Shown here: positions 15,356 to 63,889 of the stretch, in pieces
How positions within the stretch are numbered: position 1 is the first letter of the stretch
Layout: every line of letters begins with the position of its first letter
DNA from: a virus
IMG/VR virus record: IMGVR_UViG_3300042882_001046
Location: 1 to 64,000 of that record
Strand: one strand, 5' to 3'
Length of the DNA stretch: 64,000 nucleotides
Program-made: the position numbers and the translations under genes
The notes under the pieces: generated by a model
Databases searched by the model: none
What the model saw: only the letters and a program-made list of their open reading frames with translations
Told to the model about the DNA's origin: nothing

Positions 15356-15356
15356 T

Positions 15357-16028: not shown

Positions 16029-16029
16029 C

Positions 16030-18148: not shown

Positions 18149-19308
18149 GAAAATTAAGTATTCCAATTTTTAGATTGAAATTTGATTTCAAATCCAAAGT
18201 TAAATTCCTAAGAGGTTCTTGGGATATATTGTCTTCTGACAGACCATTAGGTGAATCCAAATACGTTAAAGAGTTTGAAGATAAATTTGCCAAGATGAGT
18301 GATGCAAAATATGCGTTAGCCTGTTCAAATGGTACCACCGCTATTGAGTTAGCGTTAAAGTCTCTTGGAGTATATGGTAAAAAAGTTTTGATGCCGTCAA
18401 ATACATTTTTCGCAACTAGTGTTGCAGTTACAAATGCTGGAGGTATTGTTGAATTATTAGATATGGAATCGCAATCATTTTCAATTTGTCTGAAAGATTT
18501 GGAATCTAAAATAACTTCGGAAACAGGTGCGGTTATTATTGTTCACATTGGTGGTATCATATCACACGATATTAATAAGATTGTTCAGTTATGTAAAAAA
18601 CATAATGTTCCATTAGTTGAAGACGCGGCCCACGCCCACTTTTCTTTAAAAGGTACTCAACGAGCAGGAGTTATTGGTGATGTAGGTACCTTCTCATTCT
18701 TCCCAACAAAAGTTATGACAACAGGTGAAGGTGGTATGATTACTACAAATAACAAAGAACTTTATGAAAAAATGAAATCATTAAAGAACTTTGGTAGACA
18801 TCTTGAGGATGCGGGTGTTATTGTCGCACCAAATGGAAACAACTTTAAGATTAACGAATTTACTGGATTATTAGGTAGTATAGAATGTGATAGAGTTCAT
18901 GACAGAATTGAACAAAGAAGTTATCTTTTAGAGAGATACCGAAAAAATTTAGAAAAGACCAAATACACAGTTATCAAACAAAAAGGTAAGGGTATTTGTG
19001 CGAACTATAAGGCAATTGTTATTACCCCTATGGACGGTGCTTGGTTAAAAAAATATTGTAAAGAAAGAGGTATTTCATTAACGGGAGAGGTATATAGAAT
19101 CCCCGTTCATCAACAACCTTTATATAAAGAGCAATTTTCCTCTGTAAATTTACCAAATACTGATTATTATTGTAAACATCACGTATGCCCTCCTCTATAC
19201 CCTGAGTTATCAATAAAAGAGGTCGATTACATTTGTGATGTTTTAAAACAAGCTTTAATCGATTATGAAGAACAGAGTAGCAAAACTAACTCAGATAAGA
19301 AAGATTGA
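18145..19308 (+). CDS. DegT/DnrJ/EryC1/StrS aminotransferase
   Basis: SNGTTAI, VEDAAHAH and FSFFPTKVMTTGEGG (PLP lysine). Confidence 0.93.
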   Translation: MRKLSIPIFRLKFDFKSKVKFLRGSWDILSSDRPLGESKYVKEFEDKFAKMSDAKYALACSNGTTAIELALKSLGVYGKKVLMPSNTFFATSVAVTNAGGIVELLDMESQSFSICLKDLESKITSETGAVIIVHIGGIISHDINKIVQLCKKHNVPLVEDAAHAHFSLKGTQRAGVIGDVGTFSFFPTKVMTTGEGGMITTNNKELYEKMKSLKNFGRHLEDAGVIVAPNGNNFKINEFTGLLGSIECDRVHDRIEQRSYLLERYRKNLEKTKYTVIKQKGKGICANYKAIVITPMDGAWLKKYCKERGISLTGEVYRIPVHQQPLYKEQFSSVNLPNTDYYCKHHVCPPLYPELSIKEVDYICDVLKQALIDYEEQSSKTNSDKKD

Positions 19309-42304: not shown

Positions 42305-43021
42305 TTATTTTCCTAAAAAATCGTTCAATTTTTTCATTAAGTCAACTGATTTTTCAACATAATCATTTCCTTGTTTTGTTTTTATTTCTTCGTCTAAATT
42401 TTCCTCATACTTATTTCTGTCATCAGGATTTGAAAACAAATAAGCTCCTGGTGTAGATGGTGACGAAACTAAGTCAAAACATATAAGTTCAAAATCATCT
42501 TGAACTTCATTTCTTTCTCCAACTTTTTTAAGTGAACCAACCCCTCTTGATGATACTCCCATAGTAACACCTTGTCTCATTAAATTTGCTGCAATGTCTC
42601 CTTTTGTTGAAACAATTCCTCTTTCATGAAACCCTGGAGAAGTTAATAATTTTAACTTACCCATTAAGATATTTTTGTCCCACCAAATATCTGTGATAAT
42701 GTGAGACACTCTATCTAAGTCAATAAGTGATGATTCAGGGTGATTTAATTCTGAAGTTGATAATCCTTTAGCAATGGATTGTTTATATCTTTCGGCTTCT
42801 CTTTTTAATATTCTTTCAGGATAAGTTCTACCGTTTCTATTTGGTGTATCGTATTTCTGAAGTACCGCGTAAAATTCGAAAGGATTTCTATAATCAAGAT
42901 TTGTTGCTTCTTTTAATACCTCGATGTTACGAACATCGGTTGGGGAAACAAATCCAGCATCCATTTCAATCAATATACCATGACCAATCTCGCTGGCCTC
43001 TAAAATTCTTAAATTTTTCAT
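42305..43021 (-). CDS. gp21: Prohead protease (T4 gp21-like)
   Basis: NRNGRTYP, ELNHP, GVSSRGVGS and FDLVSSPSTPGA; TATTTAT at 43035-43041. Confidence 0.93.
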   Translation of the reverse strand: MKNLRILEASEIGHGILIEMDAGFVSPTDVRNIEVLKEATNLDYRNPFEFYAVLQKYDTPNRNGRTYPERILKREAERYKQSIAKGLSTSELNHPESSLIDLDRVSHIITDIWWDKNILMGKLKLLTSPGFHERGIVSTKGDIAANLMRQGVTMGVSSRGVGSLKKVGERNEVQDDFELICFDLVSSPSTPGAYLFSNPDDRNKYEENLDEEIKTKQGNDYVEKSVDLMKKLNDFLGK

Positions 43022-44500: not shown

Positions 44501-46351
44501 TTATGAATTTAATAACTTATCCAATTCTTTTGAAATTTCTCCTAAAGAATCTTGTCCGTGACCTAAATTTATCATTTCCGCCCCCTCAATTAGATTATTT
44601 TCAACCAAAATATTAAGGTCTTTCATTTTTGATTCTGGTGTTACTTCTCCTCCTGCTGGTGGAGCTTCAGCTGGTGGGGCTTCAGGTAATGGAGGTTCTC
44701 CTCCTGATAAATCACCTCCACCAAATGATGGTGGTGGTGCCAATTCTTCACCTCCATCAGGAGTTGTTGCCGCTCCTGCACTTGGTGTTGCACCTGTTGC
44801 ACTTCCATAAAGTTTATCAATATTATCAAATAAACCTGTCTTGGTAATAACAGTAGGTGTTGCCTTAAGTTCTTCCCCAACCGCTCTTTCAATTCTTTGT
44901 TGTTGTAAGTCAAGACGAACTTCTTCATCAGACCAACCAAAGATATGTTTCTTAGCCCATGTAGATGAAGTTGCCTGAATACCGTTTCCTGGGTCAGCAA
45001 CCAAATCTTTGTATAACAATACCTTTTCTTTCCAAACATCAATTTTTAATAAATCCGCTTGAGTTGATGGATTTGTTAATCCTATTGTAAAGTTTGATAA
45101 TTCATCTTCAAATCCTAATAAAAATAAGTGAACGATTGCAATTTTGTTCAACTCTGCTAACATACTCTTTTGGATTCTGTTGATTGTACGAGCGAATCTA
45201 ATGTCTTGTAGTGCCAAGTTTTTACCATCACCAACAACTTCCTCAAATCCTAAGAATGCCTTAGGTACACGAAGAGCAGTTAATAGTTTCTTTTGGATAT
45301 ATTCAATATCTGCAATTTCAGATAGGTTAGTTGCACCAGGTAATGTTGTAATTGGGTCTGGTGCTGCTGGGTCACGTACAGGGATGAAGTAATCTTGGTC
45401 AACCGCCATTTGGTTGAATCTCATATCTACATTACCTGTCTTACTATCTACAATTTGCTCTCTTTTAAATTTGTTGGCAACACGTTGTACATATGCTTCA
45501 ACATCATCGTCATTCATATTTCCAACAAATACCTTGAACATTCTTCTTTCAGGTGCTCTTGATGTACGATAAATCAACATCGCGTCTTCCGATAATAAAA
45601 GTTGTTTCCAAATTCTTCTTGCTTTTTCCAACATAGAAGTACCATAAGGAAGTTTTCTATCATCACCCAATAATCTAAAGTGAGCAATTTCCCATGATTG
45701 GAATTCCATGTTTTTGTTCTTCCAAGTGAAATGTAGAGCCTTTCTATCCTTATCAACTTCTTGTTTTACGTCCGTTGCAATTTTACCACTTGCACCTACC
45801 TCATGTCTTTCAATTTCAATTGTAGGTAATTGTTGTACTCCAACAATTCCTTTTTCAGGGTCTAATTTTAAATAAACAAAGTTATCACCGTACTTACAAG
45901 TGTTTCTAGTCCACATTGGTAAGTTAGTGTTGATGTCTAAGGCGTTGTTAAATAAGTCGGCCAACACACCTTTAATTCTTTTTGATTCTGAATATATCTG
46001 TAAGATGAATCCATCTTCATTAGTGGTTGTTGATTCCTCAGCGTAGATATCTAATGCGGCAGAAATCTCAGGAGTATACTCCATTGATTCATAATCATAC
46101 TGAGCCGATAATCTTGTTGGTTCATAATAAATTGCTTGTGAATAAAGGTTGTTTTCTACCTTTGTCCACTGATTAGTAAGATAATAAGTTTGTTGTGCCT
46201 GAAGTTTTTCTTTCTCGTATTCTTCTCTACTTTTTGTGCGTAGAAGTTCCTTTTTATCAAACTTGAATGTTGGATAATCCTGTTGTAAAAGTGAGTTCGG
46301 TCCAAATGTTTGTGACAGTCGTTGCCAAACCGTCATATTCTGTTCTGCCAT
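44501..46351 (-). CDS. gp20: Portal protein (T4 gp20-like)
   Basis: YTPEISAALDIY, EDAMLIYRTSRAPERR, EDIEYIQKK-like DIEYIQKKLLTALRVP and QDIRFARTINRIQ; TATTTAT at 46381-46387. Confidence 0.93.
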   Translation of the reverse strand: MAEQNMTVWQRLSQTFGPNSLLQQDYPTFKFDKKELLRTKSREEYEKEKLQAQQTYYLTNQWTKVENNLYSQAIYYEPTRLSAQYDYESMEYTPEISAALDIYAEESTTTNEDGFILQIYSESKRIKGVLADLFNNALDINTNLPMWTRNTCKYGDNFVYLKLDPEKGIVGVQQLPTIEIERHEVGASGKIATDVKQEVDKDRKALHFTWKNKNMEFQSWEIAHFRLLGDDRKLPYGTSMLEKARRIWKQLLLSEDAMLIYRTSRAPERRMFKVFVGNMNDDDVEAYVQRVANKFKREQIVDSKTGNVDMRFNQMAVDQDYFIPVRDPAAPDPITTLPGATNLSEIADIEYIQKKLLTALRVPKAFLGFEEVVGDGKNLALQDIRFARTINRIQKSMLAELNKIAIVHLFLLGFEDELSNFTIGLTNPSTQADLLKIDVWKEKVLLYKDLVADPGNGIQATSSTWAKKHIFGWSDEEVRLDLQQQRIERAVGEELKATPTVITKTGLFDNIDKLYGSATGATPSAGAATTPDGGEELAPPPSFGGGDLSGGEPPLPEAPPAEAPPAGGEVTPESKMKDLNILVENNLIEGAEMINLGHGQDSLGEISKELDKLLNS

Positions 46352-46388: not shown

Positions 46389-48149
46389 TTATTTGGCACC
46401 AAATAACCACCCATATTTTTGGTAATCGGCTTTGGACGCCCCGTTATTCGTAAGGTGGGGGTCTCTTCCCATTTGGGGAACCATCGGATTAAAAAATTCT
46501 GACGTGTTTTTATTTTCACTCATAACAGTAGACCATGAATTCAACATTGCCTTTGTATGATTAACAACTTTACTTAAAGACGCAAATGATTTTTCTGCAA
46601 TGTATATTGCCATAGATAAACCCATTATACAGTCATCGTGTTGTCCTTTTTGGTGGTCAGGTCTTCCGTTTATGTAAACAAAAGTATTCATTTCGTTGTA
46701 AGTCCTATGAGAATATATTTTAAACCCGTGTCTAACCGCTTCCTCAAATGCCGCAATAATTTGAACCCTTTTTGTGTTAAAATTAATACCAGGTATTTTG
46801 TCATTAATTTTTGGGTCCCATTTCCATTTGTTTGTTGTATCAACACCATCAACATATAATCCCCCTTCGTATTGAAGTTCTTGCATTTTTCTTGCGGTTG
46901 AAACTCCCATACCACCTGTAATATCAATTACACAATAAGCATTATACATTGTACCCCACTTGTAGGCAATTTCAGCTAATATATCTGGAGGTATTTTTCC
47001 AACATATTCAAAAACTTGTTCTCTATCGTCAAAATCAATAATTTCTATTGATGAAAAATCTTCTGAATCTCCTCTTGAAACGTCGACACCCATTACGTAC
47101 TTATGTCCATTAACTGGTTCTTTAAAAATCCACAAGGAATTACCCATCAATTTTGCTTGAGGGTCTCTTAATTGATTTTTAGAAATATTCTGCATTAACT
47201 CAGAATCAAATACGTTATCCCCTGAACCCAAGAAATTACATTCCAACTCCTGAGCCACTTTACGTCTATCGTATTTAAGTTTTTTTACCATACTCTCAAA
47301 CCATGAAGAACACGGTTTGTACCCTTGCTCAACATAATTTTTTACAACACTATGGTCTCTCTCATATGGATTATCCATAGATAAGTCTATCAAAACATCA
47401 ACTGGATAATCTTCCCTGTTCAATAGATAATGAACTAAATCATTTGTCTTAACCATGTAAAGGTCTTTTGTATATCGAGGGTCTCTGAACCAAAACATTT
47501 CAGAGATTTTGAAATCGTTCATACCTCGTAAGGCTTGGTCATAAATTTCGTAATAGATTGGGTCGTAACCGTTTGGTGTGGATACAACAATAACTTTACC
47601 TCCCGTTGATAGTGAGGCCATACACGCTGACCAGAAATCTCCGTCAGCCTCGATAAACGCCGCCTCATCAAAAATAAGAATGGTTGGGGTATATCCCCTC
47701 AAAGCATCTTTTGAAGTTGCAACCGCCTTAACTTCACATCCGTTGTTAAGTTTAAAGTGTCTTTGTGAATTTTTTTCCACAGAGAATCCAATACCAACCC
47801 AAGCAGGCCATTGTTCTGTAAAACTTCTAACCTTATTTGCCATCTCCATGGAGGTATCCAACTTGTTGGCAATGATTAGAATTTTTTCAGGTTTTTCTTT
47901 TCTTGCAAATGCAAGTTTTTTTGACGCCCAAGCGGCTGTAACTGTAGATACACCTGCCTGACGATACTTCAAGGCGATGTTTTCGTTGTAGTTTTCGTAA
48001 TCTTCTAATAGGGAAACTTGGTCTGGAAATAAATCCAATGGAACATACTTAGAGACTGTGTTGTCGTATGTTTGTAAATAAGTACGAAGTGCGTAAGGAG
48101 TACTCCTCATACACTTCGTATATTCTATAATTAATTGTTCTTTAGTCAC
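46389..48149 (-). CDS. terL: Terminase large subunit (gp17-like), GTG start
   Basis: KYRQAGVST, FDEAAFI, VSTPNG, GVDVSRG and HDDCIM. Confidence 0.95.
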   Translation of the reverse strand: MTKEQLIIEYTKCMRSTPYALRTYLQTYDNTVSKYVPLDLFPDQVSLLEDYENYNENIALKYRQAGVSTVTAAWASKKLAFARKEKPEKILIIANKLDTSMEMANKVRSFTEQWPAWVGIGFSVEKNSQRHFKLNNGCEVKAVATSKDALRGYTPTILIFDEAAFIEADGDFWSACMASLSTGGKVIVVSTPNGYDPIYYEIYDQALRGMNDFKISEMFWFRDPRYTKDLYMVKTNDLVHYLLNREDYPVDVLIDLSMDNPYERDHSVVKNYVEQGYKPCSSWFESMVKKLKYDRRKVAQELECNFLGSGDNVFDSELMQNISKNQLRDPQAKLMGNSLWIFKEPVNGHKYVMGVDVSRGDSEDFSSIEIIDFDDREQVFEYVGKIPPDILAEIAYKWGTMYNAYCVIDITGGMGVSTARKMQELQYEGGLYVDGVDTTNKWKWDPKINDKIPGINFNTKRVQIIAAFEEAVRHGFKIYSHRTYNEMNTFVYINGRPDHQKGQHDDCIMGLSMAIYIAEKSFASLSKVVNHTKAMLNSWSTVMSENKNTSEFFNPMVPQMGRDPHLTNNGASKADYQKYGWLFGAK

Positions 48150-52745: not shown

Positions 52746-53489
52746 TTACTCTTCTATTTTTCTCTCAACAGACAATTCTTTATCCAAGGCTTTATTTGAA
52801 CTATCAAACAATCTTTGAATATGTTCTGACCTTCTTAAGAATTTAAAAACCAAATTTTCATACGAAAGTTCTCCTTCTTTTTCTAATCCAGATTTTCTAT
52901 AATCTTTCAATTTTTCTTTAATGGAATCGATTAGTTTTTGATTATCTTCAGATTCTTCCGAATCTAAAACCTTGTCAATTTTTTCGGTCCAGTTTTTAAT
53001 TTTCTTTTCAAGAACTGATTTATCTATTTCGTTTTTAAACTTTTTTGGGTTTGTAACCCACTCATCATTCATTACTGAATAAACTCCTGTGGCAAAATGA
53101 GGTTCCTCATTGTCTTGAGCATATAACTCAACATCATATCCGTAAATCTTGATGTCGTGTTTATCATTAAAAACTTGTTTTTTTAAATTATATAATTCTT
53201 TATACAATGGAGCCTCATCTTCATATTGTTGTAAGTCAACAATGATGTGTAAATCAAAATCCGAAAACTCGGACCAGTTAAAATTGGCCAAAGAACCTGT
53301 TAAAACAATGTCCTCAACAAATACATCCTCACCTAAATAATTAATAAATTCTTCGGAAATTCGCATAAGAGCTTTCCTAACTTTAGGAACCATTGTTGCC
53401 TTTTCGGGGTCATTAGGATTTTCCCAAACTTTAGGGTTTAATGTTTTTTTTACCAAAAAACTATTAAGAATTTGTTGGAATTTACTCAT
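52746..53489 (-). CDS. Pol-beta-superfamily nucleotidyltransferase
   Basis: LTGSLANFNWSEFSDFDLHIIVD..DVELYAQD; TATTTAT 4 nt before ATG (53494-53500). Confidence 0.75.
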   Translation of the reverse strand: MSKFQQILNSFLVKKTLNPKVWENPNDPEKATMVPKVRKALMRISEEFINYLGEDVFVEDIVLTGSLANFNWSEFSDFDLHIIVDLQQYEDEAPLYKELYNLKKQVFNDKHDIKIYGYDVELYAQDNEEPHFATGVYSVMNDEWVTNPKKFKNEIDKSVLEKKIKNWTEKIDKVLDSEESEDNQKLIDSIKEKLKDYRKSGLEKEGELSYENLVFKFLRRSEHIQRLFDSSNKALDKELSVERKIEE

Positions 53490-53500
53490 TTATATAAATA

Positions 53501-53740
53501 CTATAGTTTTTTGTACTTAAACGCTTTTGAAATATCGGTGGTAAAGAATTTACCTTGAGATTCCGCCATTCTGAATTTGGTATAAATTTGGTGAGGTACT
53601 TCATCATATTCATACTTAAATCCGTTATTGAATTCAACAACAAGTTTTTTTGTCTCGGTGTCGTATTCGCTTTTTTTAATGTTTGAAGATTTTATCTCGT
53701 TAATAATCTTCGTTCCCTGAATCGTCTCTTTTACTATCAT
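53501..53740 (-). CDS. KTSC-domain protein
   Basis: SSNIKKSEYD..LVVEFNNG..YEYDEVP..AESQGKFF. Confidence 0.88.
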   Translation of the reverse strand: MIVKETIQGTKIINEIKSSNIKKSEYDTETKKLVVEFNNGFKYEYDEVPHQIYTKFRMAESQGKFFTTDISKAFKYKKL

Positions 53741-54041
53741 ATAATTTCCAATCTTTGAGCGGCGTTAATTCATTTATTTTTTGAAGAAGTGGCATTACAT
53801 AATCCTGTACTTCTTTTTTAGTTGCATCGAATCCGTAATCTTTAACCGATGCAATGACTTTATTTAGTTTGTTTTGGAATCTTTCTTGTAAGTTCATCAT
53901 TTTCATCGTGTAAGTTGGAGGACTTTCTAAATCTGATTCACTAAATCCTAATTCTTGTAAATGTTGTCTAAGCTCCAAATATATGTCTAAAAGCTCTCTT
54001 AGTATAGACGCAGTTGCCAAAAATTTCTCAAACGGTTTCAT
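53700..54041 (-). CDS. Hypothetical protein
   Basis: Likely start MKPFEKF at 54041, 5 nt after TATTTAT (54047-54053). Confidence 0.65.
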   Translation of the reverse strand: MKPFEKFLATASILRELLDIYLELRQHLQELGFSESDLESPPTYTMKMMNLQERFQNKLNKVIASVKDYGFDATKKEVQDYVMPLLQKINELTPLKDWKLYDSKRDDSGNEDY

Positions 54042-54052
54042 ATTTAATAAAT

Positions 54053-54628
54053 ATGGACTACACCGATACTTTTCTATTACACGGTAAAATTGATGTTGAC
54101 CCAATCATAAAAATCATTACTGATAATAATTTGGATTGGGATGAATACACCGAAAGACAAAATAAATGGGGTACAGAACATCTATACACCAAAACAATAC
54201 CAATAATTTTTGACAAGTCTTTTAATTTTAATCATTTAAAAATTATTCCAACCGAAAATTATCCATTGTTTATTGACGAAATTTCAAAAATAGAAGAACA
54301 AATTAAATCAAACACAGGTGAAAGCGGAAAAATTATGAGAGCCCTATTGGTTAAATTAACGGCAGGTAAATTAATTAGACCTCACGTTGATACCGTAGGG
54401 TTTAGTTTAGTTGTTTGTAGAAGAATCCATATTCCAATTCAAACTAATGATGAATGTTTCTTTACTGTCGGTGATGATAAAAGAAATTTAAAGATTGGTG
54501 AAATGTGGGAAATCAACAACGACAAAAAAATGCACTCGGTTGAAAATTTTGGAAGTACTGACAGAATACATTTGATTGTAGATTGGGTTGAGGAATCATT
54601 ATTTGAAAAATATGATAGACAAAACTAA
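54053..54628 (+). CDS. Asp/Asn beta-hydroxylase-like 2OG-Fe(II) oxygenase
   Basis: IRPHVD..RIHIP..HSVENFGSTDRIHLIVD; likely ATG at 54053. Confidence 0.85.
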   Translation: MDYTDTFLLHGKIDVDPIIKIITDNNLDWDEYTERQNKWGTEHLYTKTIPIIFDKSFNFNHLKIIPTENYPLFIDEISKIEEQIKSNTGESGKIMRALLVKLTAGKLIRPHVDTVGFSLVVCRRIHIPIQTNDECFFTVGDDKRNLKIGEMWEINNDKKMHSVENFGSTDRIHLIVDWVEESLFEKYDRQN

Positions 54629-55277
54629 AAAACTTATTGTTTTGATGCCGCCCAAAACCGCATCAAATTCTATACGAGTCTTATTGGAGCAACATGGTTA
54701 CTTTTTTTCTAAAGACTCTAAAAAAACAAATTACCCCCAAATACATTTAAGGTTAAGTGAAATTGTGGATTTCTACAATATCAATAATTTAGACGAATAT
54801 AGAATAATACAAATTACCAGAAACCCATATCATCGGTACGTCTCGTCTTTTTACTTTCAAAAAAAAATTATCCCTCAAAACTTCTCTGTTAAATTTAAAG
54901 ATTATACTTTAGAACAATTTTCAAACCATTTATTGGAATCAAAAAAAACAAATAATTTTATTGATAATTTTTATGGTGATTCGTCATTTGTTAATCACAC
55001 AATTAATAATGGTATTAGTTGGGGTGGGACCAGATTTTATGATAAACAATTTGATTGGAATGATTTGGGGATGGACGTAAAATATTTTAAGTTAGAAAAC
55101 ATAATTGATGATATAAGTGAATTAGAAAATTTTTTAAATCTACCTATTAAAACTTTACCATTAATAAATTCACAAGGATTGAATGTTGATTATCTATCTT
55201 TAATAACACCAAAAATTCAAGATATTATTATTGAATTATTTGGAGAAGATTTTGATAAACTTAACTACTCAAAATAA
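54612..55277 (+). CDS. Sulfotransferase family 2 protein
   Basis: PKTASNSIR (5'-PSB) and RNPYHRYVSSF (3'-PB); likely ATG at 54612. Confidence 0.8.
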   Translation: MIDKTKKLIVLMPPKTASNSIRVLLEQHGYFFSKDSKKTNYPQIHLRLSEIVDFYNINNLDEYRIIQITRNPYHRYVSSFYFQKKIIPQNFSVKFKDYTLEQFSNHLLESKKTNNFIDNFYGDSSFVNHTINNGISWGGTRFYDKQFDWNDLGMDVKYFKLENIIDDISELENFLNLPIKTLPLINSQGLNVDYLSLITPKIQDIIIELFGEDFDKLNYSK

Positions 55278-55306: not shown

Positions 55307-55687
55307 TTACTTTTTCAAGTTTTTAATTTGGTCTCTAAGCTCAATTGATTTTTCAAACTCTTGGTTTTCAATTGACTTCTTTAATTCCAATTCAAGTTTC
55401 TCAATAGATTTTTGATTTTTTTCAAAGCCTTTGATTTGGTCTCTAAGTTTAACTGCCGATTCAAAATCTTCGTTCTCAATTGCTCTTTCAAGTTGATACT
55501 TTAAAGATTCTAATCCTCCTGTTTCTTTAGATGAGTCTCCTCCTCTATAATAAGTTGTTACTTTTATTGTACCATCATCAGATACTCTACTTTGCGATTT
55601 CCATTCCCCTTGGGTTAAATCAAAATGAGAGAACATTTCATCAAACGCTCTAAAGATGTCATTGTAGTTTTTTCTGTTTCCAAACAT
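55307..55687 (-). CDS. Tandem UVR (UvrB/UvrC motif) protein
   Basis: LERAIENEDFESAVKLRDQIK and LKKSIENQEFEKSIELRDQIK. Confidence 0.85.
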   Translation of the reverse strand: MFGNRKNYNDIFRAFDEMFSHFDLTQGEWKSQSRVSDDGTIKVTTYYRGGDSSKETGGLESLKYQLERAIENEDFESAVKLRDQIKGFEKNQKSIEKLELELKKSIENQEFEKSIELRDQIKNLKK

Positions 55688-55759
55688 AATTTTATTTTTT
55701 TAATTCAGATTTATTAATTACCTTTGTGGTATTCAAATAATATACCAACTGAATCTTAA

Positions 55760-55803
55760 TGTCAAGATGTCAGGTAAAATAATTATAACCTGACAATTTG
55801 TCA
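55760..55803. promoter_or_regulatory. Operator-like array of TGTCA/TGACA half-sites
   Basis: TGTCA-aga-TGTCA; inverted repeat TGTCAGGT-N12-ACCTGACA; TGACA-att-TGTCA. Confidence 0.5.
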
Positions 55804-55857
55804 AAAGATTTGGAGAAGTCCAATATTTGATATTACTTTGTAAAAAATTAGAAACAT

Positions 55858-57873
55858 ATGAACGACTTAATGGACGATGACGACAAAATGATGAGTAAGA
55901 AACAGAAATCGACTGGCGACAGTACGACTCCTGTGTTAGACAACTTCAGTCGAGATTTGAATAAACTTGCTGAGGAAGGTAAATTGGACCCTGTCATTGG
56001 ACGTGACAGAGAGATTTTGAGAATAGCTCAAATTTTATCTCGTAGAAAAAAGAACAACCCAATCATCGTTGGTGAACCTGGTTGTGGTAAGACCGCAATT
56101 GTGGAAGGTTTGGCGATGAAGATTGTTAGTGGTGAATGTCCACGTAATCTTTTGGATAAACGTTTAGTCAATCTTGACTTAACTTCTGTTGTTGCTGGTA
56201 CAAAATACCGTGGACAATTTGAAGAGAGAATGAAGGTAATTATCGAAGAACTTCAAGCAAATCCTAACATCATTGTATTCATTGATGAAATCCATACTCT
56301 TGTAGGTTCTGGTAATTCTGCAGGTTCTATGGATGGTTCAAACATTTTTAAACCCGCACTTGCTCGTGGTGAAGTCCAAGTAATTGGTGCCACCACATTG
56401 GATGAGTTCCGTAAGAATATTGAAAAAGACGGAGCGTTAGAACGTAGGTTTCAAAAAGTTGTGGTTGAACCTTCAACTGTTGTTGAGACAATTCAAATCT
56501 TGAAAAACGTTCGCGACAAATATGAGTCTTATCATAAAGTCACGTATTCTGACGAGGTTATTGAAACTTGTGTTAAGTTGGCAGACCGTTATATCACGGA
56601 CCGTGAGTTCCCTGATAAAGCATTTGACATCTTAGATGAAGTTGGAGCTCGTATGCAAACAGAACTTAAAGTTCCTGAAGTTGTTGAAGAGTTAAAACGT
56701 AAAGCGGCTGAAATCAAACAACAAAAAATTGATGTTGTTAAGAAACAAAACTACGAACAAGCTGCTCAGTTAAGAGACAAAGAGAAAAAGGTATTGGATA
56801 AATTGGAGGATGAAAAACGTAAGTTTGAAGAACAGATGTCAAAAGACAAACAAAAAGTTACATTAGAGGATGTGTACGATGTTGTTTCAAACATGACCAA
56901 AATTCCTGTAAACAAAATGTCTGTTGATGATACCAAAGCTTTGTTGAACTTGGATAAACACATTGTTGGTACCGTAATCGGTCAGGACGCCGCTGTTATT
57001 AAAGTGGCTAAATCTATCAAAAGAAATAGATTGGGTATTAAAGACCCGAACCGTCCGATTGGTTCATTTGTGTTCCTTGGTTCAACAGGTGTTGGTAAAA
57101 CTCACTTGGCAAAACAATTGGCTAAGGAAATGTTTGGTAGCGAAGATTCATTAATTCGTGTGGATATGTCCGAGTACCAAGAGAAACACACCGTATCTAA
57201 ATTGGTTGGAGCCCCTCCAGGTTATGTTGGATACGAAGAAGGTGGATTGTTAACTGAAAAAGTTAAAAACAAACCATATTCAGTGATTTTATTTGATGAG
57301 GTTGAAAAAGCTCACAAAGATGTATTCACAGTATTACTACAAATCTTGGACGATGGTCACGTTACAGATAGTTTAGGTAGAAAGATTAACTTCAAAAATA
57401 CCTTAATTATCTTAACCTCAAACCTTGGGGTTAAAAAATTACAGGACTTTGGAACGGGTATTGGATTCGGTACAAACTCTTACAGTAATGAAGAGGCAAA
57501 AAAAGACATTTTGATGAAAGAGATGAAGAACTTCTTCTCTCCTGAGTTTATCAACCGTATTGACGATACTATTGTTTTTAACTCACTTTCTCAAGAAGAT
57601 ATCAAAAAGATTACGGATATCGAACTTAAAAAATTGATGAAACGTCTTGAAGATATGAAGTACAAGATTAATTATGACGATAGTTTAGTTGAGTACATTG
57701 CAAAAATTGGATATGATGAAAGTTATGGGGCAAGACCTATGAAAAGAGCAATCCAAGACAAAGTGGAGGACTTACTATCCGAAGAAGTTCTAACCGACAA
57801 AATTGTGGAAGGTAAATCTTACGTGATTAAGGTTGAGGACGAAACGGTAAAGGTCGTTAAAAAAGGACGATAA
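55858..57873 (+). CDS. clpC: ClpC-type AAA+ unfoldase lacking the N-terminal Clp-repeat domain
   Basis: Walker A GEPGCGKT and GSTGVGKT, UVR-type M-domain (QNYEQAAQLRD), ClpP-docking GIGF loop; 671 aa starting just before NBD1. Confidence 0.92.
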   Translation: MNDLMDDDDKMMSKKQKSTGDSTTPVLDNFSRDLNKLAEEGKLDPVIGRDREILRIAQILSRRKKNNPIIVGEPGCGKTAIVEGLAMKIVSGECPRNLLDKRLVNLDLTSVVAGTKYRGQFEERMKVIIEELQANPNIIVFIDEIHTLVGSGNSAGSMDGSNIFKPALARGEVQVIGATTLDEFRKNIEKDGALERRFQKVVVEPSTVVETIQILKNVRDKYESYHKVTYSDEVIETCVKLADRYITDREFPDKAFDILDEVGARMQTELKVPEVVEELKRKAAEIKQQKIDVVKKQNYEQAAQLRDKEKKVLDKLEDEKRKFEEQMSKDKQKVTLEDVYDVVSNMTKIPVNKMSVDDTKALLNLDKHIVGTVIGQDAAVIKVAKSIKRNRLGIKDPNRPIGSFVFLGSTGVGKTHLAKQLAKEMFGSEDSLIRVDMSEYQEKHTVSKLVGAPPGYVGYEEGGLLTEKVKNKPYSVILFDEVEKAHKDVFTVLLQILDDGHVTDSLGRKINFKNTLIILTSNLGVKKLQDFGTGIGFGTNSYSNEEAKKDILMKEMKNFFSPEFINRIDDTIVFNSLSQEDIKKITDIELKKLMKRLEDMKYKINYDDSLVEYIAKIGYDESYGARPMKRAIQDKVEDLLSEEVLTDKIVEGKSYVIKVEDETVKVVKKGR

Positions 57874-57874
57874 T

Positions 57875-57900
57875 AAAAAGGGGGATTATTCCCCCTTTTT
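57875..57900 (+). terminator. Intrinsic terminator after clpC
   Basis: AAAAAGGGGGA-ttat-TCCCCCTTTTT. Confidence 0.9.
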
Positions 57901-57903
57901 TTG

Positions 57904-57910
57904 TATTTAT
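57904..57910 (+). promoter_or_regulatory. TATTTAT motif 4 nt before ATG 57915
   Basis: GTATTTATAATC-ATG. Confidence 0.65.
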
Positions 57911-57914
57911 AATC

Positions 57915-58523
57915 ATGAGTAATTTTTCAAAACTATTAGACCATTTTAGACAAAGTTTCCCAGACGAATTAAAGTCCAAGGTTGACGTTATTGAAAAATT
58001 TGTTGTTAACTATATTAAAAAACACAACATTACAGTTAAGTTTTTAAATTCGTGTGGTACTGGTTTTAGTGGGGTTAGAACAAGAGACCAAGTAATTATT
58101 TGCTCACCAGCAAACATGAGAACTATCGGTGATTTTTTATACACCATATTTCATGAAATTCGGCACGAACAACAAGTTAGGGATATAAAAATGGATAACC
58201 CACTTACTGATTACGATTTAGAAGATTTTGAAAAATTATATCAGCAATATTGGGAAATGGAGTTGGATGCCGACCAGTTTGCAAAAAATATGATTGCTAA
58301 ATTAGTTATTAAATTAAACATACCCATTTGGTTTGCAAAAGGTCAATTCGGACTATCTTATTATATTGAACAATATCCTTCTATGTCAAAATCAGTTGAG
58401 ATGTCTTTGAGGTCAATTGTGTCAACAATTCAACACCTAAAAAAATCGGGGGCCGAGTATGAAGACATACAAGACCACCCGATGGTTAAAAGGTTTATAG
58501 ATAAGTTAGAAAATTTTATCTAA
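57915..58523 (+). CDS. HExxH metallopeptidase-like protein (ImmA/IrrE-like)
   Basis: FHEIRH plus downstream ELDADQFA. Confidence 0.6.
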   Translation: MSNFSKLLDHFRQSFPDELKSKVDVIEKFVVNYIKKHNITVKFLNSCGTGFSGVRTRDQVIICSPANMRTIGDFLYTIFHEIRHEQQVRDIKMDNPLTDYDLEDFEKLYQQYWEMELDADQFAKNMIAKLVIKLNIPIWFAKGQFGLSYYIEQYPSMSKSVEMSLRSIVSTIQHLKKSGAEYEDIQDHPMVKRFIDKLENFI

Positions 58524-59369
58524 TTAGAATAACAAATCTCTATTGTTATAACTGTATTGTTTTGCTTCTTTAAAGTGTAGGGTGTGTCCCAAATCCTGAA
58601 TCATTTTTCTACCCATTTCAATCCCATTGAACACGTCATCAATAACGACATATTCATTTGGAGTGTGATAATCATAATACCCAATCGAGAAGTTAATACA
58701 AGAGAAGTCAAATTTACCTCTTAAGGCATAAACGTCAGTATATGGGTGAACCATGTATCTCATATCTTCATTAACCATTCCTTCGGTTAGGACTTTATCA
58801 ATTTTTTGGAAGAAGTCTGAATCTCTATCAAACAAAACTTGACCAAAACATTTTTCAGTAATCATCCAGTTTTCAGGGGCATCAAATTGGATTCCGTATC
58901 CAACATTTTCAAAAAACTTTGGGTCGGCAACTCTTGAGCCATGACATCCTGTTTCTTCAGATACAAAAAATGCTGCTTTTAGATATGGTAATTCTTTTAA
59001 TAATGTTAAACAAGCAAATACACCACATTTGTCATCACCACCAATACCAGTTGGTTTCCCCTCATTGTTATAGGCTTTGAGGGATGGTTTTAACACGTCT
59101 TGTGCGTTTGGTAACATCATTTCTTTGATGTTAATTGTATCAATATTGTGAACGGTGTCTGTGTGAGAAATTACACACGGGAAATAAAAATCTTCAGGTA
59201 GTTCTGAATTTTCTTGTTTTGTTGCATAGACATTCATTTTGTCATCAACATAATGGTCTATATTGTTTTCAGTCAACCAATTAACCAAGAATTCCACCAT
59301 TTGGTGTTCTTGATAGGTTTTTGTGGGTACACTTAAAACTTCTTTTAGAAGTGCTATTTTTTCTGTCAT
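58524..59369 (-). CDS. M28/M20-family metallopeptidase
   Basis: SHTDTV, GGDDKCG, SEETGCHGS and QFD. Confidence 0.85.
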   Translation of the reverse strand: MTEKIALLKEVLSVPTKTYQEHQMVEFLVNWLTENNIDHYVDDKMNVYATKQENSELPEDFYFPCVISHTDTVHNIDTINIKEMMLPNAQDVLKPSLKAYNNEGKPTGIGGDDKCGVFACLTLLKELPYLKAAFFVSEETGCHGSRVADPKFFENVGYGIQFDAPENWMITEKCFGQVLFDRDSDFFQKIDKVLTEGMVNEDMRYMVHPYTDVYALRGKFDFSCINFSIGYYDYHTPNEYVVIDDVFNGIEMGRKMIQDLGHTLHFKEAKQYSYNNRDLLF

Positions 59370-59373
59370 AGCA

Positions 59374-59405
59374 CAAAGATAAGAATAATTTATATTTCAT
59401 CCAAA
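59374..59405 (-). promoter_or_regulatory. Bacteroidetes sigma-A-type promoter
   Basis: Minus-strand TTTG (59402-59405), 20-nt spacer, TATCTTTG (59374-59381), then 4 nt to ATG 59369. Confidence 0.75.
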
Positions 59406-60436
59406 TTAAATAATGTTGGTTGATATAATAAATTATAAAAATTATCCTCAGACAATTTAACTTTTTTCTGTTGGAATCCTTTTTGTAGTATTACCACTAC
59501 TTTCATACCAGGGTATTCAAATCCTTCGATTTTGAATCTGGTTTCTTTTTTTGGGTCTTTAGGTAGATTATAAAATTTGTCTTGTTCAAATTTTTTAGTA
59601 ATTCTATCAGTCATTTCAGTGAAGTCGTGAACAGTAACTCCGTCTTCTCCTGGACCGTCTTCCAATTTTTCTAAAATATCATCTAATTTTCTCGAAGTAT
59701 AATTATTGAAACTTTCTGTGTCAAAATTATCGTCGTTCATATATTGATACGTGTCATCGGCCCAACCTCCTGGAGATGTTACGTTTCGTATTATATCATC
59801 AATCAAATCTTCAAGAGATAAGTGTATTTTATTTTCTTTTAAATACAACATTATCAGGTTAGCAACCGTGGTTCTGAATCCGTCACCATAAGATTCAAAC
59901 CCAAGTTGGTCCAAGAATTCATCAAATTCTTTATTAACCGAGTCTCTAGCACTTGTCCGAGCCTCACTGTTTCTTTCTGATTGATAATCTGAAATTATAT
60001 CTTCCGTTTCACGTCTAAAGTTAGTTAATAGTTTTTCTGAAAGTTGGTTTCTAAATTGTTCACTGTCAAAATCTACTTTAATTGGTAGAATTATCTTTGA
60101 AATTTGTGCGAGTTTTTCTTTATTATCATCATTCAAATTATAATATAGTCCCCAACCATTCTCAAAATCTTCTTTAGCCGAATGCCAATCCATAAATTCG
60201 TAATCACTATATGGAGAATTGATTACACGATAGAACCAACTGTCATCATCACTAAGACCCATCGCCTCTAAAAACTTTTCCTCGTTTTTAAACTCAACGT
60301 TAATCTTACTTTGACCTCTGTTCTGTCTATCTTCCCTTACTTCAGTGAATAACTCGTCCGCGTTTTCAAGTTCGTAAGCATTTATCTTACCTCTAACGTA
60401 GTTCCTTAAAGCAATGAATGTGTCTAATACCGCCAT
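59390..60436 (-). CDS. Hypothetical protein
   Basis: 348 aa; TATTTAT at 60443-60449. Confidence 0.75.
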   Translation of the reverse strand: MAVLDTFIALRNYVRGKINAYELENADELFTEVREDRQNRGQSKINVEFKNEEKFLEAMGLSDDDSWFYRVINSPYSDYEFMDWHSAKEDFENGWGLYYNLNDDNKEKLAQISKIILPIKVDFDSEQFRNQLSEKLLTNFRRETEDIISDYQSERNSEARTSARDSVNKEFDEFLDQLGFESYGDGFRTTVANLIMLYLKENKIHLSLEDLIDDIIRNVTSPGGWADDTYQYMNDDNFDTESFNNYTSRKLDDILEKLEDGPGEDGVTVHDFTEMTDRITKKFEQDKFYNLPKDPKKETRFKIEGFEYPGMKVVVILQKGFQQKKVKLSEDNFYNLLYQPTLFNLDEI

Positions 60437-60459
60437 ATGAATATAAATACAACTTCCAC

Positions 60460-60490
60460 TTGGATTTAAACATATTTATACTTACCTTTG
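60460..60490 (+). promoter_or_regulatory. ssrA promoter region (TTG..TACCTTTG, with overlapping TATTTAT)
   Basis: TACCTTTG 60483-60490 lies 20 nt after TTG; TATTTAT at 60473-60479. Confidence 0.65.
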
Positions 60491-60509
60491 TAATGTTCTT
60501 TGAAAATAT

Positions 60510-60932
60510 GGGGATGAAATGGTATCGATTGGCATTGTTGGGGATAAGTGGCACGTAGTCAGAATTCATCTATGACTTTAATCTATGGTGAAGACAATTA
60601 GCTGGCAATACTTTTGCTAAGATGGCGACTTTAGGTTTAACTAGAGAAGCTTCTGTTGTAGCTGCCTAAGAGGTAGTCACAACCGTTACTCCAACCAAGT
60701 TGGTGTAACCTCGGGTCGATTAGGACGTTAACCTAGGAACAGAAGTCCAATATACGGGTCACAGGTCAGAGCTCGTTTAAAATAATTCTGAGACCAGGTT
60801 GTTTGTAAGTTTGGTTCCCACATACATCAAACTTAATATTTCGGAACGTTGAGAAACAACGTTGTACTAAACGTGTAGTCATTTATTGTCAAAGTGAGCA
60901 AGACGCGGGTTCGACTCCCGCCATCTCCACCA
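60510..60932 (+). ncRNA. ssrA: tmRNA; predicted tag (A)GNTFAKMATLGLTREASVVAA at 60604-60669
   Basis: Acceptor stem GGGGATG/CATCTCC with G3-U wobble, A discriminator and CCA; T-arm GCGGGTTCGACTCCCGC; internal ORF ending GCT GCC TAA. Confidence 0.93.
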
Positions 60933-60943
60933 ATTTAAATTTT

Positions 60944-61336
60944 ATGGGAGTAGATTGTAATATATGTAGCAACAAGTGTTTCGGGGTACCAGGGTACCAC
61001 GGAAGTTGTTGCACCATAGAGGACCGTGATTATATCATAGGTTCTCATCACGACACCCAAGAATTTATTGACTCTCTATCTAATAAATTTGGTAGAGAAG
61101 TTTCCTATAATGAAGTGTTTGTTGATTACGAAGAGGGAAAAACTTTATTCCCAAACAAATCAACTTGGCAAAATCCAAATAGCTATCCCGCACTTCGAGT
61201 TGATTTTTACAACCCAAGATTCCCATGTATTTTTTATAACACAAAAATTAAGGCGTGTTCTGTATACGACATACGTCCTAAAACCTGTAGAGAATACGAG
61301 TGTGATTATTTAAAGGAGCACACAACCAACATTTAA
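60944..61336 (+). CDS. YkgJ-family cysteine-cluster (CxxCxxCC-type) protein
   Basis: CNICSNKC..SCC..PCIFY..CSVYDIRPKTCREYEC. Confidence 0.85.
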   Translation: MGVDCNICSNKCFGVPGYHGSCCTIEDRDYIIGSHHDTQEFIDSLSNKFGREVSYNEVFVDYEEGKTLFPNKSTWQNPNSYPALRVDFYNPRFPCIFYNTKIKACSVYDIRPKTCREYECDYLKEHTTNI

Positions 61337-61411: not shown

Positions 61412-63889
61412 ATGAAGTATTTTCTTTTATTTTTATTGCTACTTCCAACATTAGCAATTGGACAAATAACCGTAAACGGTTTAACAAAATCAAAATCCGA
61501 AAACATATATTTTTCACATATAAGTTTTAAACACTCAGACGGTGCCACATATTCAACAATTTCAAATGAAAACGCGGAATATAAATTAAACCTTAAATCT
61601 GGTTTATATACAATAAAAGCGTCATACATTGGATATAAAGAATTCACAAAAGAATTAAATGTAACGTCCGACTTAACCTTTGATATAATATTTGAAGAAA
61701 CTGAAACTCAGTTGTCAGAAGTTGTTGTAAGGGCGGCTCCACAAAAAGTAACCGAAGCATCAATTGTTAGGTCAATACGAAATAATAATGTCGTATCCGA
61801 TGGACTATCAATTGAATTTATTAAGAAAACTCCTGACAGAAACGTTGGTGACGCACTTAAAAGAGTTGGTGGGGTAACCATCCAAAACGATAAATTTGTA
61901 TTGGTAAGAGGTTTGGCAGACCGTTATAATTCTGCATTATTAAATAAAACCCCACTACCGTCAACTGAACCAGATAAAAGAGCGTTTTCTTTTGACATAA
62001 TCCCAACTTCTTTAATTGACAACATTATTGTTGCTAAATCATCGTCAGCAAATTTGCCTGGTGATTGGAGTGGGGGATTAGTTCAAATAACAACAAAAGA
62101 AGTTTCTGATAAATTTTTTAATCTGTCATTGGGAAGTGGTTGGGGTTCGGTTTCAACCTTTAGAGATTTTAAGTTAGTTCAAGCTACCGATTTCCCTTCC
62201 ACATTCCCTTCAACTTATAGATACCGTATATCATCAAACGGAGATAAAAGGGCGTATACTAAATTAATTGGTAATCCATCAGTTGAACAGACTAAATCAA
62301 CCCCTAATTTAAATGGAGGATTATCATTTGGTCACGCAAATGGAAAATGGAATTCATTATTTAGTTCTACAATTAGAAATTCATATACACTAAACAATAT
62401 TGAAAGAAAAGATTATCAATCATCAACAGAGTTAGCTTATGACTATAAAGATGTTTTATTTACAAAAAGATTTTCAACAAACAGTTTGTTTAATTTAACT
62501 TACTTGGGTGAAAATAGATACAGTTGGAAAACTTTAGTAAACTACCAAATTGAAGATTCATATCTAAACCGTAATGGCGATAATTTTGATAACGTTCAGA
62601 ATGTTTTAACAACGTCTTCGAATCATGTTAACAACGTTGTAATTAGTTCTCAATTTGACGGTAAAATTAAAACATTAAATTTTAATTTAGGATACAATTA
62701 TACGTTTAGAGAACAACCAGATTATAGGATTAATCCAATCACAAAATCATTAGGTGTTAACGAACCTTACGCAACTGCGTGGAGAGACACATATCGTTTT
62801 TGGAGTGTAATGGATGAAAACTCATTTAACGGTAACATAAATAAAGAACTCAATAATATTAAAATTGGTGGTGGGTACATTAAAAGGTTTAGAGGTTTTA
62901 ACGCTAGAATATTTCGTTATCTATCAACAGACATGATGGATGAAATAACAAACAACACCGACAGATATACTGCCGATTTTGATTTGGGGTCTCTTTACTC
63001 GATGTATGAAAACGAATTTGGTAAATGGAAAATAAATGGTGGAATAAGAGGTGAATATAATTTATTTAATGTTCAAACCGCAGATTTTAGTGGTACGGAA
63101 GTGAATGTTAACAGAAAATATTTAGACCTTTTACCTTCGTTAAATCTCTCATACAACGAAGAAAAAACAAAGTATAGATTCTCAGTAAGTAAAACATTGG
63201 CAAGACCTGAATTCAGAGAAGTTGCTAATTTTGCTTATTATGATTTTGTAAGAAATGCTCAAATATTGGGAAATTCAAAGTTAGAAAAATCTGACATATA
63301 TAATTTAGACCTTAAATACGAATGGTACCCAAAGACAGGTGAAAACATTTCGGTTTCTTTATTTGGTAAAAATTTCATTAAACCAATTGAACAAATTGTT
63401 GCAGACGGCTCAGTTCCTTCAAATCTTCTTTTAACTTACACAAACCCTAATTCAGCAATCTTATACGGTATTGAATTTGAAGTTCGTAAAAAGATAAGTG
63501 ATTGGTTTGATGTTTATACAAATGCTTCGGTAATGAATTCAGAAGTAGAAGTTAATGGTATCAAAAGACAATTACAGGGTCAATCAAACTATGTTTTAAA
63601 CGGAGGAGTAAACATACATAAAAAGAAAAACACCCTTAATTTAACTTATAATAGAGTTGGTGATAGAATATCATCTGTAGGGTTTCAGGGGTATCCTGAT
63701 ATATTCGAAAATAGTAGAGATGTATTAGACATTACATTCTTACATAAACTTTCAAAAGGAGAAATAAAATTGGCAATAGGTGATGTATTTGCTCAACCAT
63801 CAATTTATTACCAAAAGGTACAAAACCGAAATCTAATAAAAATAAACAATGAGCAAACAATTTCATTAACATTAAATCTAACATTATGA
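61412..63889 (+). CDS. TonB-dependent outer-membrane receptor (Bacteroidetes-type)
   Basis: Signal peptide followed by Q, CarboxypepD-like domain (KASYIGYK), plug (DALKRVGGV..VRGLADRYN..FDIIP) and barrel motifs (RPEFRE, NSKLEKSDIYNLDLKYEWY). Confidence 0.9.
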   Translation: MKYFLLFLLLLPTLAIGQITVNGLTKSKSENIYFSHISFKHSDGATYSTISNENAEYKLNLKSGLYTIKASYIGYKEFTKELNVTSDLTFDIIFEETETQLSEVVVRAAPQKVTEASIVRSIRNNNVVSDGLSIEFIKKTPDRNVGDALKRVGGVTIQNDKFVLVRGLADRYNSALLNKTPLPSTEPDKRAFSFDIIPTSLIDNIIVAKSSSANLPGDWSGGLVQITTKEVSDKFFNLSLGSGWGSVSTFRDFKLVQATDFPSTFPSTYRYRISSNGDKRAYTKLIGNPSVEQTKSTPNLNGGLSFGHANGKWNSLFSSTIRNSYTLNNIERKDYQSSTELAYDYKDVLFTKRFSTNSLFNLTYLGENRYSWKTLVNYQIEDSYLNRNGDNFDNVQNVLTTSSNHVNNVVISSQFDGKIKTLNFNLGYNYTFREQPDYRINPITKSLGVNEPYATAWRDTYRFWSVMDENSFNGNINKELNNIKIGGGYIKRFRGFNARIFRYLSTDMMDEITNNTDRYTADFDLGSLYSMYENEFGKWKINGGIRGEYNLFNVQTADFSGTEVNVNRKYLDLLPSLNLSYNEEKTKYRFSVSKTLARPEFREVANFAYYDFVRNAQILGNSKLEKSDIYNLDLKYEWYPKTGENISVSLFGKNFIKPIEQIVADGSVPSNLLLTYTNPNSAILYGIEFEVRKKISDWFDVYTNASVMNSEVEVNGIKRQLQGQSNYVLNGGVNIHKKKNTLNLTYNRVGDRISSVGFQGYPDIFENSRDVLDITFLHKLSKGEIKLAIGDVFAQPSIYYQKVQNRNLIKINNEQTISLTLNLTL

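Follow-up and report, generated by a model that had tools for sequence, protein, structure and literature searches.

In bacterial trans-translation, the SsrA tag is degraded by ClpXP or by ClpAP with SspB, and in some bacteria by ClpC-ClpP. Among proteins with UVR motifs, bacterial McsA acts with ClpC, as chloroplast ClpF reportedly does too. Jenne et al. (2025; PMC12583610) found that the SsrA degron is read by the pore of the Hsp100 unfoldase and not by its N-domain. Their Staphylococcus aureus ΔN-ClpC-F436A degraded GFP-SsrA (GFP, green fluorescent protein) adaptor-free and as well as MecA-activated ClpC; ΔN-ClpC alone was inactive, as the head-to-head contacts of the M-domains must be broken by F436A. 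Parts of such systems are also carried by phages. Transfer-messenger RNAs (tmRNAs) are known in Bacillus phage G and in cluster C mycobacteriophages such as Bxz1 (PMC4131195), and reports on huge phages mention tmRNA as well as SmpB (Al-Shayeb et al., 2020; PMC7162821). For the ClpP, ClpS and ClpA/ClpX of jumbo phages, the proposed roles are the degradation of host proteins or help in assembly (Iyer et al., 2021; PMC7824862), and phage SPO1 is known to have an adaptor-like protein for the ClpC of its host (PMC6873191). Genome surveys have listed both phage tmRNAs and phage Clp genes. Here we describe a locus where a tmRNA gene and a clpC gene stand close together, at 55307-60932 of IMG/VR record IMGVR_UViG_3300042882_001046. 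The window analyzed comprises the first 64 kb of this 118,268-base contig, for which CheckV gives a completeness of 39%. The features of the locus, with the clpP gene that lies further along the contig, are as follows (ORF, open reading frame).

55302-55279: terminator-like hairpin after the UVR gene
55307-55687 (-): UVR mini-protein with two UVR motifs, 126 residues (PF02151, E 1.3e-15)
55688-55857: AT-rich divergent intergenic region, 170 bp, between the UVR gene and clpC
55858-57873 (+): ClpC-type double AAA+ unfoldase without N-domain, 671 residues (AAA_2, 2.4e-68; AAA_lid_9; ClpB_D2-small; phrog_4871, 9e-244)
57875-57900 (+): strong intrinsic-terminator-like hairpin directly after the clpC stop, with an 11-bp stem, G5/C5 core and T-run; it reads as a terminator on the minus strand too
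57915-58523 (+): HExxH protein, zincin-like, 202 residues (phrog_1914, of unknown function, 3.4e-5)
58524-59369 (-): M20/M28-type (MH clan) metallo-exopeptidase, 281 residues (PF01546, 27.5 bits against a cut-off of 24.6; phrog_4191, 'peptidase', 1e-32)
59390-60436 (-): ORF348, a conserved phage protein of 348 residues, between the peptidase and the tmRNA
60510-60932 (+): one-piece tmRNA (ARAGORN; Rfam RF00023, 98.6 bits against a gathering score of 47, model positions 1-374 of 374)
60604-60669 (+): tag reading frame of the tmRNA, 21 codons plus stop, ending V-V-A-A (gene positions 95-160, ARAGORN)
86174-86854 of the contig, outside the window and 25 kb downstream: ClpP (PF00574, 4.3e-57 over positions 5-181 of 182)

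A first-pass annotation, made from the letters alone, had placed the UVR, ClpC and peptidase genes and the tmRNA at these same positions, and had proposed that they form one phage-run pipeline. We give an even chance to a more limited reading, in which the cluster is the end of a conserved terminase-to-tmRNA core block in a large family of uncultured freshwater jumbo phages that have protein quality-control parts of their own, and in which we infer a link between tag and ClpC. Scanning IMG/VR with ClpC yielded at least 594 confirmed relatives, and locus counts were taken from the best 80, whose ClpC is 68-100% identical to that of the window. Their tmRNAs were located with an nhmmer profile, as ARAGORN alone saw only 10. 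The conserved order runs from the terminase through five conserved genes, a nucleotidyltransferase, a KTSC protein, ClpC, the peptidase and ORF348 to the tmRNA. The peptidase is a core gene, found after ClpC in each of the 75 loci long enough to include it; the tmRNA follows in 63 of the 63 loci reaching far enough, always on the same side and strand, and the other 17 end before its place. In close relatives, the genes are therefore not scattered, which had been named as the outcome that would undo the proposed pipeline.

By its sequence, the tmRNA is complete and chargeable with alanine: the acceptor stem GGGGAUG pairs with CAUCUCC, followed by ACCA, with a G3:U70 pair and an encoded CCA. ARAGORN returned 'Tag not identified' for the window tag. 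The tag frame is nevertheless kept in 59 distinct homologues, where the tag has 21-23 residues and changes in length by whole codons, and where entropy at the three codon positions is 0.90, 0.65 and 1.28, i.e., third positions vary most. Since the frame is kept, the length changes are of whole codons and third positions vary in excess, the tag peptide itself is under selection. G11 and L12 are invariant, K6 occurs in 57 of the 59 and a terminal alanine in 55, which gives a conserved core, K-[ML]-x3-G-L, and a variable ending, V-x-[VA]-A. Bacterial tags have about 10 residues and end in A-L-A-A or A-M-A-A, unlike the phage tags. Three genomes of Aquirufa, the genus that the probable host resembles (see below), have short tags, GNTSYAMAA or GNTQYAMAA, encoded at the corresponding place of the tmRNA gene; the phage tag shares their G-N-T start but is 12-14 residues longer than these 9-residue tags and does not end in A-M-A-A. 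The distinction between phage and host tags that the first-pass annotation had assumed thus holds in both length and ending. When compared with GenBank phages by blastn, the tmRNA gave only 31-32-nt matches, all to its 3′ end. In the 484-kb huge phage LR756508.1, ARAGORN predicts a tmRNA at 92434-92880 with the short tag GRRKPLSW, unlike the window tag, and a further tmRNA-like match, partial and of 58 bits, is found at 414804-414915.

A tag so different from the host's could also belong to a tmRNA that acts as a competitor or sensor, displacing the host tmRNA and adding a tag that is unseen by host ClpXP or that has another function such as localization. The fragmentary tmRNA of mycobacteriophage DS6A, which may titrate SmpB (PMC4131195), offers a precedent. 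However, the present tmRNA is of full length; it has a resume site, and its conserved frame closes with a stop. Most tags of the family end in small hydrophobic residues plus alanine, as degrons do; we consider the competitor role very unlikely.

The unfoldase is of the ClpC type. It aligns with S. aureus ClpC in one continuous stretch, residues 146-795, at about 50% identity, whereas the alignment with ClpB breaks into two stretches, and its short M-domain has the length of that of ClpC. Because the alignment covers only residues 146-795 of S. aureus ClpC, with the phage protein starting at the equivalent of residue 146 and showing no N-terminal Clp_N domain, we conclude that the N-domain is missing. 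Upstream of the start codon there are only 170 bp before the opposite-strand gene, and ClpC has 630-710 residues in relatives vs. 857-859 in Aquirufa, to whose ClpC the phage protein is 57% identical. The working parts are otherwise present: Walker A motifs at residues 72 and 408, Walker B motifs at 139 and 476, both pore loops (KYRG and GYVG), and a ClpP-docking loop, G-I-G-F, at residues 534-537. Of 80 aligned sequences, 79 have G-[IVL]-G-F at this loop and the other has IGF. The M-domain tip is Q-N-Y-E-Q-A-A-Q-L-R-D, with the tyrosine at the position of S. aureus F436. With the same tip motif and the same ClpP loop, the phage ClpC is a natural equivalent of the ΔN-ClpC of PMC12583610, and a reading of the locus as ribosome rescue coupled to Clp degradation fits those published data. 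The phage ClpC differs from that of the Firmicutes ClpC-ClpP system in that the N-domain, the docking site of MecA, McsB and phospho-arginine, is absent in every member of the phage family.

These features suggest how the parts might work together. In an infected cell, the phage tmRNA and an SmpB of either phage or host would free stalled ribosomes, and unfinished proteins would receive the phage tag; the likeliest reader of that tag would be the pore of the headless ClpC while docked to a phage or host ClpP; and the double-UVR protein, where present, would tune ClpC through the M-domain. It is plausible that the phage runs its own ribosome rescue and Clp proteolysis in this manner. The resemblance to the bacterial tmRNA-SmpB/Clp system lies in the one-piece tmRNA with its G3:U70 pair, CCA, resume site and tag frame, in a Clp unfoldase with a docking loop, in ClpP on the same phage genome and in SmpB in phage relatives. 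The differences are that all parts here are virus-borne and that the nearby unfoldase is a ClpC without N-domain, not ClpX. Like phage G, Bxz1 and the huge phages, this family combines a complete tmRNA with a large, tRNA-rich genome and sometimes a co-encoded SmpB, (PMC4131195; PMC7162821), but the papers that we found describe neither a long tag conserved throughout a family nor a fixed place beside a headless ClpC, a peptidase and ORF348. The jumbo phages of PMC7824862 have likewise acquired a cellular-type ClpP and a Clp ATPase; here, the ATPase is a ClpC without N-domain, encoded by one of the lineage's core genes, and its neighbors include a candidate double-UVR partner and a tmRNA. In the literature, we found no description of this phage lineage, of its long tag or of a headless ClpC beside the gene for a tag.

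The first-pass annotation had pointed to smpB and clpP as genes to be sought elsewhere. The latter is on the same contig, while SmpB was not found on the 118-kb contig (39% complete) but is encoded by two of three complete relatives, far from the cluster. It is conceivable that host SmpB could serve the phage tmRNA instead. Two of the complete relatives have ClpP 27-32 kb from ClpC and the third is without it. ClpS was found neither in the contig nor in four relatives; similarly, no SspB homologue was found, and no MecA or McsB was seen. The phage ClpP is diverged: its best NCBIfam model is NF011091, at 236 bits and below the equivalog cut-off of 361. Its catalytic triad of Ser (G-M-A-A-S-M-G), His (M-L-H-Q) and Asp (R-D-L-W) nonetheless aligns with the solved ClpP 1y7o, and two models of ClpP-like head proteases score only 71-84 bits on it. 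A role of this ClpP as head protease was rejected, as a separate head-maturation protease occupies the T4 position among the following genes.

38184-39974: T4-type major capsid protein Gp23 (1e-71)
42305-43021: head-maturation protease, in the usual T4 position (phrog_207, 9e-43)
44501-46351: T4-type portal (9e-76)
46389-48149: large terminase
72299-80840 (-) of the contig, outside the window: array of 23 tRNA genes, whose anticodons cover all 20 amino acids, with small ORFs interspersed

Because a separate head protease exists, the phage ClpP is free to pair with ClpC. This also bears on the idea that ClpC mainly serves the morphogenesis of the large T4-type head, as a chaperone or by removing scaffold, with the tmRNA unrelated. 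An assembly role has been proposed for phage Clp ATPases (PMC7824862), and ClpC lies about 7.7 kb from the terminase gene, inside the conserved head and packaging block. However, the nucleotidyltransferase and KTSC genes between terminase and ClpC are not structural, the ClpP-docking loop and the cellular-type ClpP point to proteolysis, and the head has a dedicated maturation protease. We regard a primary role in morphogenesis as very unlikely.

The T4-type capsid, portal, terminase and head protease on one contig also bear out the phage origin of the DNA. No close cultured phage was found, the terminase being at most 29% identical to any protein of GenBank phages. Complete genomes within the family measure 309-321 kb, and we put the size of this one at roughly 300 kb, i.e., that of a jumbo phage, from lake water; the DNA runs containing the region are lake-water metagenomes. 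Could the contig be bacterial DNA misfiled as viral, carrying ordinary host housekeeping genes? A gene for a TonB-dependent receptor adjoins the tmRNA, and the ClpC, ClpP and tmRNA genes are of cellular type. The phage hallmark genes refute this notion, to which we attach next to no probability; the 23-tRNA array and the direct terminal repeats of the complete 321-kb relatives also contradict it, as does the ClpC locus of Aquirufa, where there is no UVR mini-protein, peptidase, HExxH protein or ORF348 homologue. The Aquirufa locus likewise rules out that the cluster is a copied host operon. The TonB-dependent receptor is 62% identical to Aquirufa proteins, which points to freshwater Cytophagales as hosts, and the host is probably an Aquirufa-like member of this group of Bacteroidota. 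The receptor itself (window 61412-63889, +), directly after the tmRNA region, is of full length (825 residues) with CarboxypepD_reg, Plug and beta-barrel domains. It is unusual for a phage to carry an outer-membrane receptor, and the gene, present in only 2 of the 80 relatives and inverted there, may be a recent pick-up from a host.

Beside ClpC, the UVR protein consists of a small N-terminal domain and two copies of [FY]-E-x-[AS]-x-x-L-R-D, the same motif as that of the ClpC M-domain tip. As it carries two copies of this tip, its probable role, in lineages where it occurs, is to tune ClpC by way of the M-domain; by capping M-domains, it could release active hexamers. Its best NCBIfam match is McsA, at 46 bits vs. 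a cut-off of 210 and over model positions 138-176 of 182 only, and the cysteine pairs that form the zinc fingers of McsA are not found in its sequence, so that it resembles the UVR part of Firmicutes McsA but does not belong to that family. The likeness to ClpF and McsA, as small UvrB/C-motif proteins beside ClpC, is a lead only: those proteins work by way of McsB or the N-domain of ClpC, and the phage has neither route. Homologues number at least 690 in metagenomes. Among the 80 relatives, the gene is present in 39, always directly upstream of ClpC and divergent from it, and the promoters of both genes presumably lie within 55688-55857. A complex prediction for ClpC and the UVR protein scored 0.08 against a mark of 0.32, which weighs neither for nor against binding.

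Several observations weigh against a functional unit, and they converge on a rival account, that these genes are neighbors by descent. On this account, the tmRNA frees ribosomes, the tag leads to host proteases (ClpXP, Lon or a tail-specific protease) or is of minor importance, ClpC-ClpP has other clients (host regulators, defense proteins or bulk host protein), and the peptidases act independently. We regard it as possible, if somewhat doubtful. The strand order across the cluster is -, +, +, -, -, + (four changes), and terminator-like hairpins follow both ClpC and the UVR gene (10 such sites were found vs. 3.1 expected from shuffles); alternating strands and hairpins together indicate that the genes are not co-transcribed. 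The adjacent packaging genes, from terminase to KTSC protein, are as colinear as the cluster itself, and some relatives have inserts of up to about 4 kb between ClpC and the peptidase or of about 1 kb between ORF348 and the tmRNA. Because the order extends well beyond the cluster and variable inserts split it, descent alone could explain its conservation. Furthermore, the UVR and HExxH genes are not fixed members: only about one relative in two has the former and one in three the latter. The lack of the UVR gene in half of the relatives also weakens its proposed tuning of ClpC; its presence does not co-vary with the M-domain tip, whose motif is conserved to the same degree with and without it. 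One complete relative is without ClpP and another without SmpB, and the varied tag endings (VAA, VVA, AVA, TVA, VKA, VEA and VTI) would be unusual for a strict C-terminal degron.

Comparison with other lineages extends these objections. Three GenBank huge phages encode a headless ClpC that is 50-58% identical and keeps the docking loop, but no peptidase, UVR gene or tmRNA was found within 20 kb of it; a tmRNA above the Rfam gathering score is absent from two of the three and in the third lies 360 kb from ClpC, with a short predicted tag unlike that of the window. Small phages of Cellulophaga, Klebsiella, Vibrio and Pectobacterium commonly carry a peptidase of the M20/M28-type family, among them phages like Cellulophaga phi38:1 and Klebsiella KP34. 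In the ClpC tally, the top ten genera include Klebsiella with 11 records (vs. 230 for the peptidase) and Vibrio with 7, and are without Cellulophaga and Pectobacterium. Because the parts are separable in other lineages, the idea of a dedicated cassette is weakened. With mixed strands, hairpins, inserts and parts that stand apart elsewhere, the locus is neither a single operon nor a dedicated cassette; the pipeline that the first-pass annotation envisaged as one unit, with the targeting of defense proteins and the recycling of amino acids, is conjecture. Descent as the sole bond is also in keeping with the interpretation of jumbo-phage ClpP, ClpS and ClpA/ClpX as anti-host tools or assembly aids (PMC7824862). 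What it leaves unexplained is the tag, which is long, family-specific and conserved as a peptide, and which something therefore reads. Its ending is unlike the A-M-A-A of Aquirufa, and loss of the N-domain is the very change that, with F436A also needed, opens ClpC to SsrA-type substrates in vitro (PMC12583610).

Within the favored reading of a core block with its own quality-control parts, one could go further and suppose a private degron, orthogonal to the host. The phage tag, with its K-[ML]-x3-G-L core, would be read specifically by the headless ClpC and degraded by phage ClpP, with the UVR protein as an M-domain decoy or ORF348 as an adaptor possibly helping, while host-tagged proteins would stay with ClpXP. 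Such specificity seems to us rather unlikely; if it were true, the virus would control the fate of products from ribosomes stalled by RNA-cleaving defenses of the host.

The lineage is of interest in several respects. It is abundant in lakes, with at least 80 related contigs examined, and it offers a natural ClpC without the N-domain, the change that (with F436A) opens S. aureus ClpC to SsrA-tagged substrates, together with a distinctive, peptide-conserved tag and a virus-borne double-UVR protein that copies the M-domain tip of ClpC. If the tag is read by this ClpC, the phages would have a virus-owned route for tagging and degradation, which would give engineers a compact orthogonal pair of degron and protease and would let current models of ClpC control be tested on a natural case. 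If it is not, the cluster is still a well-defined marker block of a large uncultured phage family.

Two peptidases had been proposed for the cluster, and the M20/M28-type enzyme is one. Its metal ligands, S-H-T-D, G-D-D-K, S-E-E and Y-H-T, align with those of PepT (3gb0), and its residues 10-164 and 222-259 align with PepT residues 14-168 and 333-370. It consists of the catalytic domain only, without the lid/dimerization domain, as about 55 residues stand in for a PepT insert of roughly 165. A second peptidase can be counted only if the HExxH protein is accepted as one. This protein is a probable zincin-like metallopeptidase, in which H80, E81, R83 and H84, plus E116, D118, D120, D187 and H188, are invariant among 18 aligned homologues, some of which have an N-terminal zinc ribbon. 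It had no match in Pfam or NCBIfam. A structure model (predicted local distance difference test, pLDDT, of 78) matched ArdC best (Z 6.9, 120 residues aligned, root-mean-square deviation 5.4), followed by PprI (Z 5.5); other weak matches were IrrE/PprI, BlaR1, CapP and Wss1/SprT. All of these are below the level that would establish a shared fold, and Foldseek E-values were 0.2 or worse. The gene is accessory, occurring in 24 of the 80 relatives.

ORF348, whose start faces the tmRNA gene across 73 bp, was also considered as the second peptidase and was dropped because it has no conserved catalytic-type residues: no conserved set of His, Cys, Ser or Glu was seen. Homologues of 343-626 residues occur in 68 loci by iterated hidden Markov model searches. 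Searches of Pfam, NCBIfam, PHROGs and the ESM Atlas returned no match for ORF348, and structural searches with its model (pLDDT 91.5) gave nothing convincing, including against BFVD; the best Foldseek hit in the PDB had an E-value of 0.04, and the best VIA wide match (Z 5.7) covered helical segments only. The peptidase, the HExxH protein and ORF348 are neighbors by descent. A paralogue of ORF348 of about 500 residues lies at 65517-67016 (+) of the contig, and at least 13 relatives have one as well.

Exact-match contigs from four metatranscriptome libraries of three studies cover the tmRNA (60549-60898) and the ClpC, UVR, HExxH and peptidase genes. They are consistent with transcription in lakes; DNA carry-over is possible, and contigs can neither prove nor rank expression. 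Over ORF348 (59619-60420), no RNA-library contigs were listed, from which we draw no conclusion. Word depth was 25-230 for tmRNA contigs vs. 2-8 for contigs of the neighboring genes, a difference that is no more than suggestive, as the depth of contigs cannot rank genes and related phages share parts of the tmRNA.

The core nucleotidyltransferase-fold protein (phrog_36119) and KTSC-domain protein between the packaging genes and ClpC occupy 52746-53740 (-). The gap between the KTSC and UVR genes, 54014-55277 (+), holds an Asp/Asn beta-hydroxylase-like gene and a sulfotransferase-like gene; because these occur in only 5 and 2 of the 80 relatives, respectively, it is a variable spot for insertions within the otherwise conserved block. 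Relatives also vary in the genes that lie downstream of the tmRNA. In the window, the first of them (60944-61336, +) encodes a small protein with a weak match to a CxxCxxCC zinc/iron-chelating domain and is found in 9 of the 80.

Elsewhere on the contig, a protein at 67755-68378 has the HAD domain of 'Swiss Army Knife' RNA-repair proteins, an M23 peptidase gene lies at 70026-71942 and an HNH endonuclease gene at 81091-81582, and a carbamoyltransferase gene of the NodU/CmcH type (82261-83928) is 2.2 kb upstream of clpP. Within the window, a long run of same-strand genes spans about 3-34 kb. The ORFs scanned at about 8365-19308 (+) include a glycosyltransferase (families 2 and 4), a UDP-glucose/GDP-mannose dehydrogenase and a DegT-type aminotransferase, which suggests a phage-borne sugar or glycan pathway, and the gene at 9990-10784 shares 56% identity with one from a 642-kb huge phage.

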